Shown here: piece after piece, positions 14,364 to 25,570 of the stretch
Layout: each line of letters opens with the position of its first letter
Numbering within the stretch: position 1 is the stretch's first letter
Source of the DNA: a virus
Direction: 5' to 3' (one strand)
Length of the DNA stretch: 64,000 nucleotides
IMG/VR virus record: IMGVR_UViG_3300024054_000269
Location: 1 to 64,000 of that record
Position numbers and translations under genes: made by a program
The notes under the pieces: model-generated
Told to the model about the DNA's origin: nothing
Databases searched by the model: none
The model's input: only the letters and a program-made list of their open reading frames with translations

Positions 14364-14392
14364 GTTATTAAATAGTTCATGTAATATTTAGC

Positions 14393-18839: not shown

Positions 18840-19018
18840 ATGAATTCTGTAATCATCCAATAAGACACATAAACTGTTACTGTTATTAATCTATAATCAT
18901 CAAAAAATTTTAAATTCTGTAATCATCAAATTTTAACAGAAAATGTACTACTAAATAGTATTGGAATTAGATTGTAAATAAAATTTAATTGGTTGATTTG
19001 GGTGATTACAGAATTCAT
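18840..19018. repeat. 21-bp imperfect inverted repeat with internal direct copy
   Basis: ATGAATTCTGTAATCATCCAA (18840-18860) vs reverse complement of 18998-19018 (20/21); AATTCTGTAATCATC repeated at 18913-18927. Confidence 0.8.
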
Positions 19019-20671
19019 AGAATGTTAATCACCCAGTATAGTCATAAAATGGAAGCTCAAACATGTGTTGGTTGTTTTGTTGAAAAACCACTATCTGATT
19101 ATTTCAATAATGCAATTAAGAAAAATGGTAAAGATTCAAAATGCAAAGTATGTAGAAAATTAAGAAACAAAGAATGGTCAAAAGATAATGAAGAAAAATG
19201 CAAGTCAATACGGAAAGCATATTATGAAAAAACTTATTGGGATAATAGAGAAAAACGAAAAATAAGATATCAACTTGAACATGATAAAATATTAGAACAA
19301 AAACGTGAGTATGTGTCAAGAACAAGAGAAGAAAGGAAGAAATATCTAAAAGACTATAGAAATAGAAATAAAGATGAACTACAAATTCTCAGTAAATTGA
19401 ATAAACGATTCATAATTGATGGGGTATTGGATTTACTTGGTCCAATATGCATTGATTGTGGTGAATTGAACAGGCATTTTTTGACAGTTGACCATAAATT
19501 GAACAATGGGAACGAAGAGAGACACCTGAGCAGTATTGGATGGAAAAGGAGAATATTAAATGGTCAATCAAATAAAGATGATTATCAAATTTTATGTTTT
19601 AATTGCAATTTAGGTAAATATAGATTAAACCCAACAAACCATCAAAAAGGTAGACAAATTATTGGTGAATTAATACTATGTCCGAAATGTTTGTTTGAAA
19701 AAGATCGATCAGAATTTTCCAATGATTTATCTAAGAACAGATCTTGTTTTGAATGTCAGCGATTTATGGACACTTTTGTTAAAGTTAAAACAATAAATTT
19801 TGTTGGAGGTAAATGTGCATGTTGTGGAATGTCAGAACCACATAAATTAACAATTGATCATATTAAAGGTGATGGATGGTATAGAAGAAAATTTTTGAGT
19901 GAAGGTTCTGGCGTTGATTTTTATAAAAAAATCTTGAACCATACTATAGATTCTAAAGGTTTTCAAATCTTGTGTTGGAATTGCAATATGAGTAAACACA
20001 TAAATAATGGTGTTTGTTTGCACCAAATGCTATTTAAATCAGAAAAATTAAACAGAAATAGACCAACGCTGACCAAAAATAACAATAGCTCTGAAAATAA
20101 AGATTTTAATTTTATTAATATCACAATAATTAAGGGTTCTAACCTCCAGTCAAAGAAATTGTTCAAAGATTATCACTACAACAAATTCGGGCGCCCTCAA
20201 ACCGCTATCTATTCAGCCATTCTTGACGATAAAGTCATTGCAGCTGTCAAATTTTGTACGCCAGTTAGGTTAGAGGTTGCAACGACGCTTGGCTATGAAT
20301 ATAAAGATGTAATTGAGCTTGATCGATTTTGTATTCATCCTGAATATCAGAAAAAGAATTTTGCATCTTGGCTAATGTCGCGTGTGGTCAAACAGTTTAA
20401 AACTGACTTTCCTGACATCAAGGCTTTAGTTTCATTTGCTGATACTCGTTTTGGTCATGTTGGTACTATTTATAAGGCTTCAAATTGGAAGGAACTTGGT
20501 CAAACTTCACCAAGTTACGTCTACGTCGATCTTGATGGCAATGAAATAAACAAGAAAACTCTATATGGTTATGCAAAACGTAGAAACATGAAAGAACGTG
20601 AGTGTGCTGACCGGCTCGGTCTCAAGAAAGTGCCGACGCCGCCAAAAATCAAATATATTTACGAACTTTAA
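18989..20671 (+). CDS. Tandem HNH-like endonuclease domains fused to Mom-like GNAT domain
   Basis: CIDCG..LTVDH..N..ILCFNCN and CACCG..LTIDH..ILCWNCN; C-terminal IELDRF, SFADTRFGHVGTIYKASNW as in Mu Mom; likely start ATG 19049 (TATAGT 6 nt upstream). Confidence 0.75.
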   Translation: MVDLGDYRIHRMLITQYSHKMEAQTCVGCFVEKPLSDYFNNAIKKNGKDSKCKVCRKLRNKEWSKDNEEKCKSIRKAYYEKTYWDNREKRKIRYQLEHDKILEQKREYVSRTREERKKYLKDYRNRNKDELQILSKLNKRFIIDGVLDLLGPICIDCGELNRHFLTVDHKLNNGNEERHLSSIGWKRRILNGQSNKDDYQILCFNCNLGKYRLNPTNHQKGRQIIGELILCPKCLFEKDRSEFSNDLSKNRSCFECQRFMDTFVKVKTINFVGGKCACCGMSEPHKLTIDHIKGDGWYRRKFLSEGSGVDFYKKILNHTIDSKGFQILCWNCNMSKHINNGVCLHQMLFKSEKLNRNRPTLTKNNNSSENKDFNFINITIIKGSNLQSKKLFKDYHYNKFGRPQTAIYSAILDDKVIAAVKFCTPVRLEVATTLGYEYKDVIELDRFCIHPEYQKKNFASWLMSRVVKQFKTDFPDIKALVSFADTRFGHVGTIYKASNWKELGQTSPSYVYVDLDGNEINKKTLYGYAKRRNMKERECADRLGLKKVPTPPKIKYIYEL

Positions 20672-21401: not shown

Positions 21402-21585
21402 GTTCCGGCTTTTTAGTTGCCGGACAAACTTTGATACCCCGTGAAGTCTCCGCCGTTCCACTTCTGGAGGTCGCGTTCCGGCTTTTGAGTTGCCGGACAA
21501 ACTTTGATACCTTGGCGTCGCCGAACGTTGGCTTCATGCCCTCCAACTCGTTCCGGCTTTTGAGTTGCCGGACAAACTTTGATAC
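21402..21585 (-). CRISPR. CRISPR array: 3 x 36-nt repeats, 2 full spacers (37 and 39 nt)
   Basis: Minus-strand repeat GTATCAAAGTTTGTCCGGCAACTCAAAAGCCGGAAC at 21550-21585, 21475-21510, 21402-21437 (last has one change); TCCGGC/GCCGGA hairpin at 3' end; could be 37 nt since a G follows each copy. Confidence 0.93.
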
Positions 21586-21591
21586 AATCAT

Positions 21592-23553
21592 TCACGATGA
21601 AAGCGTTTCTAGTGCTGTTTCGTTGGCGTTTTGCGAGATATTCTTATTTGATTTCGTATTAACATTCCTTTCTTGGTTTTTCAGTTGTTTTTCAGATGGT
21701 CCGTTAGGCTTGCGAGAAACTCCTGGGTTTGGAGAACCATTTGATTGCTCGCAACGTTTCAACAAAATATGGCAGGCATTTTCATCTTGATCCCAATATT
21801 TTTCACAGTTTGAGCATTGGAGAACCAAAATTTCTTGATTTTTCCATTTATTAATGTGTCCGCACAAATGACATTCCCTGGTTGTATTCTCTGGATCAAC
21901 CTTTATAATATTTGGTTTACCAAAAGCTTGAATTAACTCTAAACGAAGCTCACCAGGTGATCCAATTGACATAATGCAATGCGTATAATCTTTCGGGTTT
22001 TCATTCTCTGGGGTCGAGTTTTTTATAAATTTTCTAAGATCCATATCCTCAACAACTAATGTTTTATATCTTTGTGATAAATTAGAAGCTATGTTTCTGT
22101 ACAAATGTTGACGATTCGATATTGTCTTTTTGCGTTGATCGGCTGCCCATTGAATCAAATGCCGGTCTTTACGGCGCCAAAGTTCTAAATAAAACAACAG
22201 TTGAGTGGCTTGGTCTTTAATCCCAGCCAAATTCGCCCACGTAAATATTTCGTCCTTTGTCGCAAATAAATCTAATTTAGACGAAAATCGATAATTTTTC
22301 CAATCAGAACAAATTTTAAAAATAAGATCTTTGTCTGATTCAGTTAACCATCGATTAACAATCGAGGCTAATTTGCCATGCATTCTCCACTGCGAGATAT
22401 TTAACGTTGCTTCTGGCATCCAATTTGGCAAACCTGAAAGTTTAGATTTAATGGCTTCTGACAAAATTGATAAAGCAACATTAAAAAATTCATCTGAGTA
22501 ACCAATTAATTTAGACGAATGCTCTAAAGCCGTTTGAATGTGATTAGGAACTAAAATTTCTTGCTTGAACCCATCATTTCCAACCACGAATCCGACTCTT
22601 ATACCATCAGGACGAACACGCCAACCAAGATCGAACGCTATTGCACCGCTAGTTGGCCTGACTTTTACGAATTCATTTGATTCGAGTGTTAGTTGTAGTT
22701 CAAATTCAGTATGAAGACCAATTCTACGGGTTGAAATCCAAGCCCAAGTAATGATTGCATCATCTGGCAATTTTCTATGCAAAGTTATTGGAAATTCGGC
22801 CCAAATTGGATTTCGTGACTTGTCTGAACCAACTCGAATTCTGACTTTTGACCTTGATAAAGGCGGCCTTACTTTTTGCTTACCATTTTTAATAAAATAA
22901 GCCTCAGGCGAAACCGGGTTGATCTGAATCATAGTTGATTTTTGATCAAAAATATCTTTTACGGTCGGTTTGTTTTGTAGCTGAACACCAATACGACCAT
23001 TTCCATCCCAACGGTGAAATTTTTGATCAGCTTGAGATGACTTGGAAGATTCTACCGCCTTTTCAATTAAGAGATAAGTTCCAAAATAAACTCCACATTT
23101 TGATCTAGCCAATTTAACTTTCTCAAGCATATCAGAAGTCAGTTTTTTATCGGCAGCTTCCAAAACTTCATTTGAATTTGCTTCATCACGTGCTTGTTTA
23201 AGTGACTCGTAAACTTGTTTCTTTTCGGCTTTCAAGTCGGAAATATGCTTTTGTAGTTCAAGATTTGAAACGCGTTTTCGAACTGATTTTCTAATTGACC
23301 TAAGTTCATCAATTGCTTTATCAAGCCTTTCTGAAACGTCTTTATATTTAACTTCAAATTCGGCTAAGTTTGGACACAATGAAGAACGCACAGTACGATA
23401 GGCTGAGCGTCTTTCTTGTTCTATTTGAACAAGATCGTTGTAATATTTATGTGCAAGTTTTAATTGCTCCCAAACAATTTGGGCATTTGAGGTTGGGCGT
23501 TTGCAACTAAATGACCAGACTCGGACTGGCAAATCTGACATTCTACGACGCAT
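21592..23553 (-). CDS. cas12m: Type V CRISPR effector, Cas12m (V-U1/C2c4)-like, TnpB-derived; RuvC triad appears intact
   Basis: LAHKYYNDLVQIE, FHRWDGNGRIGVQLQ, VRIRVGS..PIWAEFPITLHRKLP resemble V-U1 proteins; RuvC-I AFD308LGWR, RuvC-II VVE502DM, CxxC..CxxC zinc finger, RuvC-III QD590ENA; array 6 nt downstream. Confidence 0.82.
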   Translation of the reverse strand: MRRRMSDLPVRVWSFSCKRPTSNAQIVWEQLKLAHKYYNDLVQIEQERRSAYRTVRSSLCPNLAEFEVKYKDVSERLDKAIDELRSIRKSVRKRVSNLELQKHISDLKAEKKQVYESLKQARDEANSNEVLEAADKKLTSDMLEKVKLARSKCGVYFGTYLLIEKAVESSKSSQADQKFHRWDGNGRIGVQLQNKPTVKDIFDQKSTMIQINPVSPEAYFIKNGKQKVRPPLSRSKVRIRVGSDKSRNPIWAEFPITLHRKLPDDAIITWAWISTRRIGLHTEFELQLTLESNEFVKVRPTSGAIAFDLGWRVRPDGIRVGFVVGNDGFKQEILVPNHIQTALEHSSKLIGYSDEFFNVALSILSEAIKSKLSGLPNWMPEATLNISQWRMHGKLASIVNRWLTESDKDLIFKICSDWKNYRFSSKLDLFATKDEIFTWANLAGIKDQATQLLFYLELWRRKDRHLIQWAADQRKKTISNRQHLYRNIASNLSQRYKTLVVEDMDLRKFIKNSTPENENPKDYTHCIMSIGSPGELRLELIQAFGKPNIIKVDPENTTRECHLCGHINKWKNQEILVLQCSNCEKYWDQDENACHILLKRCEQSNGSPNPGVSRKPNGPSEKQLKNQERNVNTKSNKNISQNANETALETLSS

Positions 23554-23558
23554 TTAAC

Positions 23559-23566
23559 AAATTACA
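23559..23566 (-). promoter_or_regulatory. TG-TAATTT -10 box 5 nt upstream of the cas ATG (leaderless)
   Basis: Same TAnnnT-N5-ATG geometry as many other genes here. Confidence 0.55.
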
Positions 23567-23596
23567 TTAGGGTCAAATAAATTTACAATTTTAGTA

Positions 23597-24289
23597 TTGT
23601 TGAACATGACAGTCATAGCTGTAGTCAATAAATCAAAACGTGTGACATCGTCGGAAATTAAACGTATGGTAAATGCCTGTAATATTCAAGTCAAACGAGA
23701 CGTTGCACCAATTTGGGATGCCACCCCATGGTCGGTTAAATACTACGAAAATAAATTACCAAAAAATTCAATATCAATAGTAATATTTGACAATGCCGAT
23801 GAAGCTGACACTTTAGGATATCATAGTGAAACGCCAGATGGTAAACGATATGGACGTGTATTTGTGAATCCAATATTGAGATCGGGCGGTGATATATTAT
23901 CTAAACCAAACAGCGTGTCAGTAACATTGTCGCATGAAGTGTTGGAAGCATTTATAGACCCAGATATCAATTTATGGGCTGAGGATGACAAAGGACGAAT
24001 GTGGGCGTATGAAATTTGCGACCCAGTCGAAGCAACATCATACCGTATAGCTAACGTAGCCGTTTCAAATTTTGTAACGCGTTTGTGGTTTGACTCTGAA
24101 AATCAGCCAGGATCAAAATTTGATTATTTACAGCTTACAAAGCGAGCTTTCCAGGTTCTACCAGATGGTTATGCAGTATGCCGCGCAGGAAATCAAAAAG
24201 AACAAATTGTTTGGGGCAAAAAATATCCAAAATATAAAAAATTAGCAAAACGCCACCCAGCAGCCAGAACAGCACAACGTCATTTTTGA
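23597..24289 (+). CDS. Putative zincin-like metalloprotein
   Basis: LGYH, SHEVLE (HExxE), YEICDPVE; probable start ATG 23606. Confidence 0.5.
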   Translation: MLNMTVIAVVNKSKRVTSSEIKRMVNACNIQVKRDVAPIWDATPWSVKYYENKLPKNSISIVIFDNADEADTLGYHSETPDGKRYGRVFVNPILRSGGDILSKPNSVSVTLSHEVLEAFIDPDINLWAEDDKGRMWAYEICDPVEATSYRIANVAVSNFVTRLWFDSENQPGSKFDYLQLTKRAFQVLPDGYAVCRAGNQKEQIVWGKKYPKYKKLAKRHPAARTAQRHF

Positions 24290-24295
24290 ATTTTT

Positions 24296-24832
24296 TTGAT
24301 AGATATAAATATGTTAAGCAAAATTGCGAACAAGATTGCGAACAAAATAGCACAAGATCATACAAAAAGCGACTTAAAAGATCTAATCACTAAGATCGTT
24401 TCGTTCGGTTACAAACCGATTATTGGGTTGATGGAACTTGGAGGCGGAAGTGTGTATGATGTTTGGGCTTTGTCAAAAAATCCAGACGCTTGGGAACCGT
24501 ATAAGGGCAACAGATACGTTAAAAACTCAGAAAGTTACGTTATTGGATATGAATATAATGATGAATTGACTTCACAAAATATGGCTGAGGAGATGATTTA
24601 CGAAGAAACTAGCCAAGATTGGCTTCTAGAAGGTGAAAAATCAAAAGAAGTGAATACTGAGAAGTATAGATTGATACCCATTGGTAATTTAATCTCCAGA
24701 ATTGAAGGGCATCCAGGTACTTTAGAAAGAATAAAAGACATACTGTCAGCAGTCGATCCAGAATTAAGTCAAACTGCGGAAGTTTTGGAAAAAGATATTG
24801 AATATTGGTCTGAAATCAGACTAGACAAGTAG
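24296..24832 (+). CDS. Hypothetical protein with N-terminal KIANKIANKIA repeat
   Basis: 178-aa ORF; 12-nt tandem repeat near start. Confidence 0.6.
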   Translation: MIDINMLSKIANKIANKIAQDHTKSDLKDLITKIVSFGYKPIIGLMELGGGSVYDVWALSKNPDAWEPYKGNRYVKNSESYVIGYEYNDELTSQNMAEEMIYEETSQDWLLEGEKSKEVNTEKYRLIPIGNLISRIEGHPGTLERIKDILSAVDPELSQTAEVLEKDIEYWSEIRLDK

Positions 24833-24833
24833 A

Positions 24834-24841
24834 TGTAAGTT
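24834..24841 (+). promoter_or_regulatory. TG-TAAGTT -10 box directly upstream of the degenerate array
   Basis: TAAGTT at 24836-24841; N5 spacing puts +1 near 24847, inside the degenerate 5' end of repeat 1. Confidence 0.5.
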
Positions 24842-24842
24842 A

Positions 24843-25068
24843 ATTTTGAAATTTGTCTGGCAATTCAAAGGCCAGAACGATGAGCCAAGGCGTTAAAGCT
24901 TGTTCGGTAGCCAAAAAACCGGAACACTTGTGCCCGTTTCTATCAAAGTTTGTTCGGTAACTCAAAAACCGGAACTACTGAGTACAAGTCATAAACCTAT
25001 CCGGTGGTTCAAAAACCGGAGCCACTTGTAGATGATTTAAGCTTGTCTAGTAGCTAAAAAACTAGAAC
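24843..25068 (+). CRISPR. Degenerate mini-spacer CRISPR-like array: five variant copies of the Cas12m-array repeat, 10-14 nt apart
   Basis: 36-nt units at 24843, 24890, 24940, 24987, 25033; unit 3 CTATCAAAGTTTGTTCGGTAACTCAAAAACCGGAAC is 32/36 identical to the canonical repeat; 6-bp stem and 9-nt loop kept in all five. Confidence 0.88.
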
Positions 25069-25078
25069 CGAACCTGCA

Positions 25079-25570
25079 TCACGATTCAATCATTTCCTTT
25101 GATAATTGTTCATTAACAAATTTCAATAATTCTGATCTTACATATGCACCGGCTTTTCTTAATTTTGGTCTGTGGGTCAATCTTCGACGTCTTCTACATG
25201 CCGCGAAAAAATGACCAGAAGTTGGCTTTGTTGAATAATCAATATAGTATATGTTTTGGTTTTGGTTTTGGTTTTGGTCAGCGTGTATGTCAACGCGAAT
25301 TAATAATGAATATTTTGATATTAATATTTGTATCACGCCTAGTTTTTGATTTAATTTATATTTTATGATATGATTTCCGCATGTCTGATTCGGTATAACT
25401 GATAATGGGTGTTTGTCAATTGATTTTATGAATGCCTTTATTCCATTTTCATGTTTCATGTTTCTGATAAATGCCACGATTTTGATTTTGTAACAGTCAG
25501 CCTGATCTCTGTGCGTCGCCATCGTGGCTTCACGTGCGCGGAGGATTTGAGGCCCAAATTTATTGTACAT
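25079..25570 (-). CDS. Hypothetical protein
   Basis: 163 aa, QN repeat, ends KEMIES; TACCAT-N5-ATG. Confidence 0.55.
   Translation of the reverse strand: MYNKFGPQILRAREATMATHRDQADCYKIKIVAFIRNMKHENGIKAFIKSIDKHPLSVIPNQTCGNHIIKYKLNQKLGVIQILISKYSLLIRVDIHADQNQNQNQNIYYIDYSTKPTSGHFFAACRRRRRLTHRPKLRKAGAYVRSELLKFVNEQLSKEMIES
25253..25276. repeat. (GTTTTG)4 hexamer repeat encoding QNQNQNQN on minus strand
   Basis: Visible directly. Confidence 0.85.

Follow-up and report, generated by a model that had tools for sequence, protein, structure and literature searches.

Type V-M arrays, known from the systems of MmCas12m/Cas12m2, GoCas12m, and PmCas12m, are plasmid- and prophage-borne and serve competition among mobile elements; a phage-encoded Cas12m was reportedly first described in a 2026 preprint. 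Here we analyze a compact array of five variants of a Cas12m repeat at 24843-25068 (plus strand) of a viral window, that is, of the whole stretch of DNA studied, which comprises the first 64 kb of a 182,302-bp IMG/VR phage record (IMGVR_UViG_3300024054_000269). The array lies 1.29 kb from the phage's own cas12m gene, on the opposite strand, between the convergent open reading frames (ORFs) 24296-24832 (+) and 25079-25570 (-). Its repeats have diverged while retaining their pairing, the RNA between them matches a related giant phage, and the same architecture recurs at other phage Cas12m loci. We consider it moderately probable that it is a compact type V-M guide array serving phage-phage conflict.

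Several features of the described Cas12m systems bear on this comparison. All Cas12m proteins assayed, whether they carry a D-E-D, H-D-D, or N-D-D triad, bind DNA and do not cut it, and Cas12m acts as a natural repressor (PMC11013384). The Cas12m2 clustered regularly interspaced short palindromic repeat (CRISPR) RNA, or crRNA, consists of two coaxially stacked helices, with A(-2)C(-1) read by base and the 5'-most seven nucleotides (nt) disordered, and Cas12m2 forms a 17-bp heteroduplex (PMC10442227). The PmCas12m crRNA comprises a ~33-nt repeat and a ~17-nt guide, the enzyme cutting after repeat nt 2-3 and near guide position 17-18 (bioRxiv 10.64898/2026.03.26.714355). The present locus is like these systems in its effector family, two-helix handle, terminal AC, dispensable 5' end, and used guide of ~17 nt, and it would also be like them in blocking transcription by binding, in doing without adaptation genes, and in targeting other mobile elements. 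As in a type V-M array, cas12m lies in the same locus and a handle of stem, pseudoknot, and terminal AC stands 5' of the guide. In contrast, the near-identical repeats, 72-75-nt period, and 35-40-nt spacers of a type V-M array are absent from the compact array: its repeats covary (67-90% core identity), its spacers are trimmed to the used length, and one unit is as long as a mature crRNA (46-50 nt versus 72-75 nt). Moreover, it stands apart from cas12m, on the other strand and beside a normal array, and the flanks of its target matches are not TTN/YTN.

Three further groups of elements invite comparison. The mini-arrays of Sulfolobus portogloboviruses (PMC11656645; Faure et al. 2019) are likewise short viral arrays with spacers that match related viruses, as guides 2 and 3 do here, a pattern implying exclusion of competitors; however, they borrow host Cas proteins and have host-identical repeats and full-length spacers, whereas this phage has its own effector and divergent repeats. 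CreR/CreA, scaRNA, tracr-L, and the mini-arrays of cas loci (bioRxiv 10.1101/2023.03.03.530964) resemble the compact array in being stand-alone degenerate repeats near cas, and CreR/CreA-type RNAs also in that short or partial guides give binding rather than cleavage. Usually, though, two of their repeats flank a single spacer that partly matches a promoter of the same locus; the compact array has five units, no target in cis was found for it, and its matches to another phage are full-length. Finally, the RNA anti-CRISPRs (Racrs) are also phage-encoded, repeat-like RNAs that an effector should bind, but they mimic the repeats of the host, carry no meaningful guide, and are found in phages that lack the cognate effector, whereas this phage encodes its effector and its inter-handle sequences match a related phage. 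No description of compact, divergent-repeat arrays was found in the searchable literature.

Anatomy and covariation of the compact array

The units and guides of the array are as follows, with G002 and G035 denoting two related giant phages.

24843-24878 (+), unit R1, with its conserved handle core at 24849-24878
24879-24892 (+), guide 1, 14 nt on the assumption of a cut 3 nt inside R2
24890-24925 (+), unit R2
24926-24942 (+), guide 2, 17 nt, exact match in G002
24940-24975 (+), unit R3
24976-24989 (+), guide 3, 14 nt, exact match in G002
24987-25022 (+), unit R4, the most diverged, ending in GC rather than AC
25023-25035 (+), guide 4, 13 nt, exact match in G035
25033-25068 (+), unit R5, the last
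25069-25085 (+), guide 5, of undefined length since no unit follows, overlapping the 3' end of ORF 25079-25570

The periods are 47, 50, 47, and 46 nt, corresponding in a 36-nt register to gaps of 11, 14, 11, and 10 nt. In every unit the hairpin loop measures 9 nt, and columns 8-11 pair with loop columns 20-23 to form a second helix (a 4-bp pseudoknot), which covaries as well; in R4, both sides are replaced in three of its four pairs. The cores (columns 7-36) are 67-90% identical to the canonical repeat of the phage, and four of the five units keep the terminal AC. Because their fold, terminal AC, and layout match the Cas12m2 crRNA, we take the units to be Cas12m handles. A structural scan of the 182 kb revealed no further units, and Rfam returned no family in the window or at the G002 site.

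Covariation was assessed on an alignment of eight units (three canonical and five variant). More specifically, 98.6% of the pair cells are paired, as against 87.1 ± 2.1% in shuffles, and two-sided changes affect 6 of the 10 pairs (12 cells), a result matched by 0 of 500 shuffles; when partners are slid by 1 to 3 columns as a control, 10-53% of cells are paired. Relative to the canonical repeat, substitutions fall at 18 of 30 positions in columns 1-6, at 29 of 100 in paired columns, and at 5 of 50 in the unpaired columns among 7-36, and despite the 29 paired-column substitutions the alignment contains one unpaired cell only. Such a spread would be expected if a protein held the RNA by its overall shape and by a small number of bases. 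Together with the covariation in both helices, it supports the proposal of an initial annotation, made from the letters alone, that the structure is under selection. The alignment and shuffles likewise bear out the five hairpin variants with compensatory stem changes and a 9-nt loop that the annotation had described, and the coordinates agree with its period of 46-50 nt (versus 73-75 nt) and its placement of the array ~1.3 kb from cas on the opposite strand. Its expectation that standard CRISPR finders may miss the array is supported as well, since methods based on repeat identity do miss it.

These data also bear on two alternative explanations. If the array were an old, decaying one or a recombination remnant in which hairpins persist by chance or gene conversion, the limited identity of the variant repeats to the canonical repeat in columns 7-36 (only 67-90%) would be accounted for, as would the lack of Cas1/Cas2 nearby and the two of five guides without targets. 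Neutral decay would, however, break pairs, while here the 29 paired-column substitutions come with one unpaired cell and a near-invariant unpaired core, and the same pattern is seen in many phage lineages (see below). The locus is, in addition, 100% identical in three independent samples, although this is weakly informative: the same stretch is found at 100% identity in three other public assemblies, which therefore provide no variation data. We regard decay as unlikely. A cluster of terminators between the two convergent ORFs would suit the location, the five G+C-containing hairpins, and the fold z-score of -2.4 for the whole region. Yet no hairpin is followed by a T-run (AC and unique sequence follow instead), a terminator scan of 24836-25090 finds none, and neither similarity to a CRISPR repeat that extends to unpaired positions nor pseudoknot covariation is a feature of terminators, so that this explanation appears highly improbable.

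Guides and their matches in related giant phages

Columns 1-6 of the variants are not conserved and the conserved cores are spaced 16-20 nt apart; therefore, the RNA between cores is 16-20 nt, not 10-14 nt. The unique gaps of 10-14 nt given in the initial annotation thus hold in the 36-nt register but not as guide lengths. The matches of guides 2, 3, and 4 described below (17, 14, and 13 nt) all stop exactly 3 nt into the next unit, which places the guides at 13-17 nt and the units at the size of a mature crRNA. The observed periods equal 33 nt plus the guide length (14 [assumed], 17, 14, and 13 nt, giving 47, 50, 47, and 46 nt). By this arithmetic, the compact array is a head-to-tail row of mature-crRNA-sized units.

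In a scan of all viral contigs, the 17 nt that follow R2 (24926-24942) had a single exact match, in G002 (IMGVR_UViG_3300028654_000001), a genome of 512,571 bp with terminal repeats, rated 100% complete, and with 49% G+C. G002 is related to the phage studied here, as a homologue in it, at 25-58% identity, was found for 40 of 212 ORFs of at least 100 amino acids (aa) and the structural block at 17.9-122 kb is collinear with G002 379-298 kb. Neither Cas12m nor handle-like units were found in G002. On the minus strand of G002, the guide 2 site (384425-384441) falls within a 331-bp intergenic region between divergent genes and precedes the ATG of a glycosyltransferase gene by 15-31 nt; the 1253-aa product of this gene has several GT2 glycosyltransferase domains (PF00535, 5e-67). 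The guide 2 site begins 3 nt downstream from GGTGTAAT, which is one copy of the G002 gene-start motif GGTGTAA; in the form GGTGTA(A), this motif precedes 59 G002 start codons by 15-18 nt. Similarly, the first 14 nt of guide 3 match G002 exactly at 237305-237318 (minus strand), inside a 183-aa ORF, with two mismatches thereafter. The site of guide 3 is contained in a near-perfect 8+8 palindrome within that ORF (G002 237299-237320; L210 about 1498-1519). Guide 4 matches over 13 of 13 nt at 201749-201761 (plus strand) of G035, a complete relative of 411,618 bp. There the site abuts the GAGGAG ribosome-binding site of a gene for a 319-aa Myb-like protein and precedes the ATG of this gene by 8-20 nt.

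When 35-50 related genomes (about 10 Mb) were searched with up to 2 mismatches allowed, guides 2 and 3 had matches in none but G002, and reversed-pattern controls gave 2 and 0 matches. For reference, 17 of about 182,000 17-mers of this phage are present in G002 (9e-5), as are 0.49% of its 14-mers. Allowing for four guides and about 50 genomes, we estimate the joint chance of the guide 2 and guide 3 matches at roughly 3e-4. Guide 1 matched no relative; its only exact match among viral sequences falls in a 40-kb contig that is unrelated. Guide 5 produced 2-mismatch matches only, at the control level. When the compact array was compared with reference phages, the only match (29 nt, E 0.9, in a cyanophage) was treated as chance. 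Two features internal to the array were also noted. The 3' part of guide 3 (24983-24989) is complementary over 7 nt to the 5' part of guide 4 (25024-25030), forming in the predicted fold a helix that encloses unit R4, and guides 2 and 4 have an identical hexamer at their 5' ends. Both features may be a coincidence, a trace of duplication, or a feature of processing.

Recurrence of compact arrays in phage Cas12m loci

A profile of Cas12m relatives yielded 74 phage loci, in which units were detected by stem, pseudoknot, and AC motif. The unit period proved bimodal, with 239 neighbor pairs at 66-80 nt (peak 71-76 nt) having cores 97% identical, and a short-period class of 32 neighbor pairs at 40-56 nt, located in 14 loci, having cores 67% identical. 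Homologous loci, to which the initial annotation had pointed as a means of telling the array from a decayed one, thus do keep the hairpins. One case is G001, a complete genome of 180,179 bp, whose sole array follows cas12m and comprises 28 compact units (L029 6776-8104) with a period of 45-51 nt, cores that all differ, and guides of 15-21 nt; 96.8% of its cells are paired, and 45 cells are altered on both sides. The guide of unit 4 nearly duplicates that of unit 12, and the guide of unit 9 that of unit 19, suggesting that the G001 array grew by block duplication. Both unit types are mixed in one array at L064 and L031, and compact units stand immediately upstream of cas12m at L082/L083 and L078. 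At L082 (4793-4940), there are three such units, with near-identical guides that differ at few positions and look as if following variants of one target. In the high-G+C phage Cas12m loci L008, L010, L013, and L015, a conserved TTGAAAA-like box, probably the -35 element of an array promoter, stands just after cas12m and ahead of the first array unit. Within the giant-phage family to which this phage belongs, Cas12m is sporadic: among 49 relatives, only G038 has a Cas12-like gene. At this locus (L217 3356-4593), an ORF of 764 aa that is distantly Cas12-like (26% identity, E 1e-37) is followed by a regular array with a period of 71-75 nt.

The initial annotation had also suggested that the units might be decoy crRNAs. 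Racr-like RNAs that titrate the phage's own Cas12m, to set its dosage, or a rival's, the RNA between the handles being mere linker, would be in keeping with conserved handles and short, unrelated linkers; several handle variants could mimic several repeat families, and solitary viral repeats are known to act as decoys (PMC11656645). The linkers, however, match a related phage, which is very unlikely by chance, and these matches stop at the predicted processing site. Furthermore, the phage encodes the cognate effector, an array of this type is the only source of guides in G001, and within the family only G038 carries a Cas12 that could be titrated. We therefore disfavor decoys and consider them rather improbable.

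How a compact guide array would arise is a separate matter. There is a slight possibility that compact Cas12m arrays did not wear down from ordinary ones but that units of mature-crRNA size (a 33-nt handle and a 13-17-nt guide, directly adjoining one another) were copied back into DNA, or captured from the arrays of other phages, and strung together without Cas1-Cas2. Such assembly would explain why each unit has a handle variant of its own, why the period equals handle plus guide exactly, and why unrelated guides stand beside similar handles. If this were true, phages would gain a heritable, recombination-proof library of guides against rivals.

Effector, expression, and proposed function

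The features surrounding the compact array are as follows.

21402-21585 (-), canonical array with two spacers (37-39 nt) between three repeats of 36 nt
21592-23553 (-), cas12m effector gene (phmmer versus PDB; Pfam Cas12f1-like_TNB)
23554-23616 (unstranded), divergent promoter-like region between cas12m and two plus-strand ORFs (sigma-70-like sites)
23597-24832 (+), two ORFs (230 and 178 aa) without an assigned family
24833-24838 (+), ATGTAA gene-start motif, 4 nt before R1, candidate promoter

The cas12m product comprises 653 aa as an ORF and 649 aa in the public assemblies (start at 23541). A phmmer search against PDB matched it to the Cas12m chain 23vw_A at E 5e-67 and to Cas12m2 (8hhl) at E 3e-23, and alignment to the PDB Cas12m chains gives D308/E502/D590 as its RuvC triad. 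By these comparisons, the ORF at 21592-23553 encodes a genuine Cas12m. A single-sequence scan of viral contigs detected no close relatives of the effector, and no cas1, cas2, or cas4 was found near cas12m. Every assayed Cas12m, including those with D-E-D, binds only (PMC11013384), and the idea in the initial annotation that short guides are what permits binding without cleavage is thus unneeded. CheckV rates the phage record (36% G+C) as 40% complete; the full genome is probably well over 400 kb. Relative to G002, which has 2.6 kb at this place, the cas12m island (18.8-29.0 kb) is an insertion. Adjoining the island, ORF 18989-20671 encodes 560 aa with a C-terminal Mom-like/GNAT domain (PF25680, 7e-21), for which a DNA-modification function is possible.

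The canonical array begins a few nt past the cas12m stop and has identical repeats with a period of 73-75 nt. Its repeat core matched only the phage's own record among viral and metagenome contigs, and its spacers had no target in reference phages, plasmids, viral contigs, or metagenomes; spacer 2 had no match in relatives. A 20-mer match in a Hyphomonas metagenome-assembled genome and four 18-mer near-matches in relatives showed no extension and were put down to chance. Both spacers and the sequence after the last repeat start with G and have a G+C content far above the 36% of the phage, and the canonical array seems to be directed at quite different, high-G+C DNA.

Regarding expression, no sigma-70-like promoter was found before R1. 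The TG-TAAGTT box that had been proposed as the promoter of the array is not of sigma-70 type, and it overlaps the ATGTAA motif of this phage. Fifteen ORFs, among them cas12m, have this motif 13-16 nt ahead of their ATG, and a Shine-Dalgarno sequence is usually absent between the two; examples of the motif are the copies at window positions 14379, 27247, 23562-23567 (-), and 24833. That of cas12m is at 23562-23567 (-), 14 nt before the ATG at 23553. ATGTAA may be a -10-like element giving leaderless or near-leaderless messages, in which case the compact array could have a promoter of its own; a start from the copy before R1 would place the RNA 5' end at about column 4-5 of R1, which is suggestive only. 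Alternatively, array RNA may derive from read-through of the two ORFs at 23597-24832, which stop 10 nt short of the array and diverge from cas12m at a region (23554-23616) with 6 sigma-70-like sites, as against 1.0 ± 1.0 in shuffles. These ORFs matched no Pfam or PHROG family and are not kept beside other cas12m genes, one distant homologue having been found among 80+ Cas12m loci.

The initial annotation had proposed a regulatory arm that represses host or phage genes. In such an arm, akin to CreR, CreA, or scaRNA, hard-wired short guides would turn Cas12m into a repressor of cas12m itself, of other phage genes, or of host genes. Cas12m naturally represses (PMC11013384), the array and cas12m have a promoter class or region in common, and the compact units of L082/L083 and L078 lie immediately upstream of cas12m; in addition, the comparison covers the phage alone, at ~40% of its genome. 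On the other hand, no seed of at least 7 nt exists in 20.5-27 kb outside the array, the cas12m promoter region included, and thus no partial match with a protospacer-adjacent motif (PAM) to a promoter of the cas locus, as CreR/CreA and scaRNA have; in the 182 kb, the best matches of the guides are no better than those of shuffled guides. Likewise, none of the 28 guides of G001 has a self-target beyond shuffles, and at five other loci the compact guides lack targets in the surrounding ±5 kb. The matches of guides 2 and 3 are instead in a different phage. The analysis therefore lends no support to repression of cas genes or of other genes of the phage itself, and a regulatory arm seems doubtful, if less so than the other alternatives. 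Two candidates were rejected in the course of this search: a TTA-flanked 18/20 match to guide 4 at 94989, because of mismatches at guide positions 7 and 9, and an ACTTGT/ACAAGT motif common to guides 2-4, because it is not enriched upstream of genes.

For a guide array serving phage-phage conflict, we propose the following mechanism. Array RNA would be initiated at the ATGTAA-type signal 4 nt ahead of R1 or would result from read-through out of the two ORFs oriented divergently to cas12m. Although diverged from the canonical repeat and from one another, the handles would be recognized by the phage Cas12m, as they keep both helices (stem and pseudoknot), an A-rich loop that is unpaired, and the terminal AC, which Cas12m proteins read. 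Cas12m would cleave the RNA a few nt into each unit, producing a handle of about 33 nt with a guide of 13-17 nt, and once loaded, the complexes would bind matching DNA and block its transcription. Guides 2 and 3 at least, and perhaps guide 4, would be aimed at related giant phages that lack Cas12m, and two of the sites sit between a promoter-like motif or ribosome-binding site and a start codon, where binding might silence the gene. The array would thereby serve competition among phages that meet in one cell.

Several points weigh against this proposal. Type V-M guides are expected to match foreign DNA beside a 5' PAM rich in T or C (TTN, YTN, TTV, or YTTS). The 5' flanks of the matches in G002 and G035 (TAGT, TGAT, and TCCT) differ from the TTN/YTN PAMs of characterized Cas12m and hence from the TTN-like PAM that the initial annotation had asked for; T at -4 and -1 is common to them, from three sites only, and the array's own flank at the matching position is GAAC or GAGC. 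The optimal guide length is 17 nt, more than the 13-14 nt of some guides here, and PmCas12m requires the first 12 nt to match without exception. In 10 Mb, chance alone would produce about 0.3-0.4 matches of 13 nt, so that the match of guide 4 counts only by its position and end point. No credible target of guide 1, guide 5, or either canonical spacer emerged from any database searched, and the 49% G+C of G002, compared with 36% here, argues against a common host. With respect to expression, a G follows the ATGTAA before R1, whereas A or T does so in all 30 ORF-linked copies listed. Finally, the search for self-targets covers 182 kb, or ~40% of the genome as judged by CheckV.

The matches reported here are the first candidate targets for the compact array class, the function of which thereby becomes testable, and such arrays will escape any CRISPR finder that depends on repeat identity. 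If our reading is true, natural Cas12m guides may be as short as 13-17 nt, packed without waste, and the handle would withstand wide sequence change as long as its two helices are kept; short guides and a tolerant handle would be useful for short, non-repetitive multiplex Cas12m arrays in repression and base editing. For the phages themselves, it would mean that giant phages carry hard-wired sets of guides against their own relatives.

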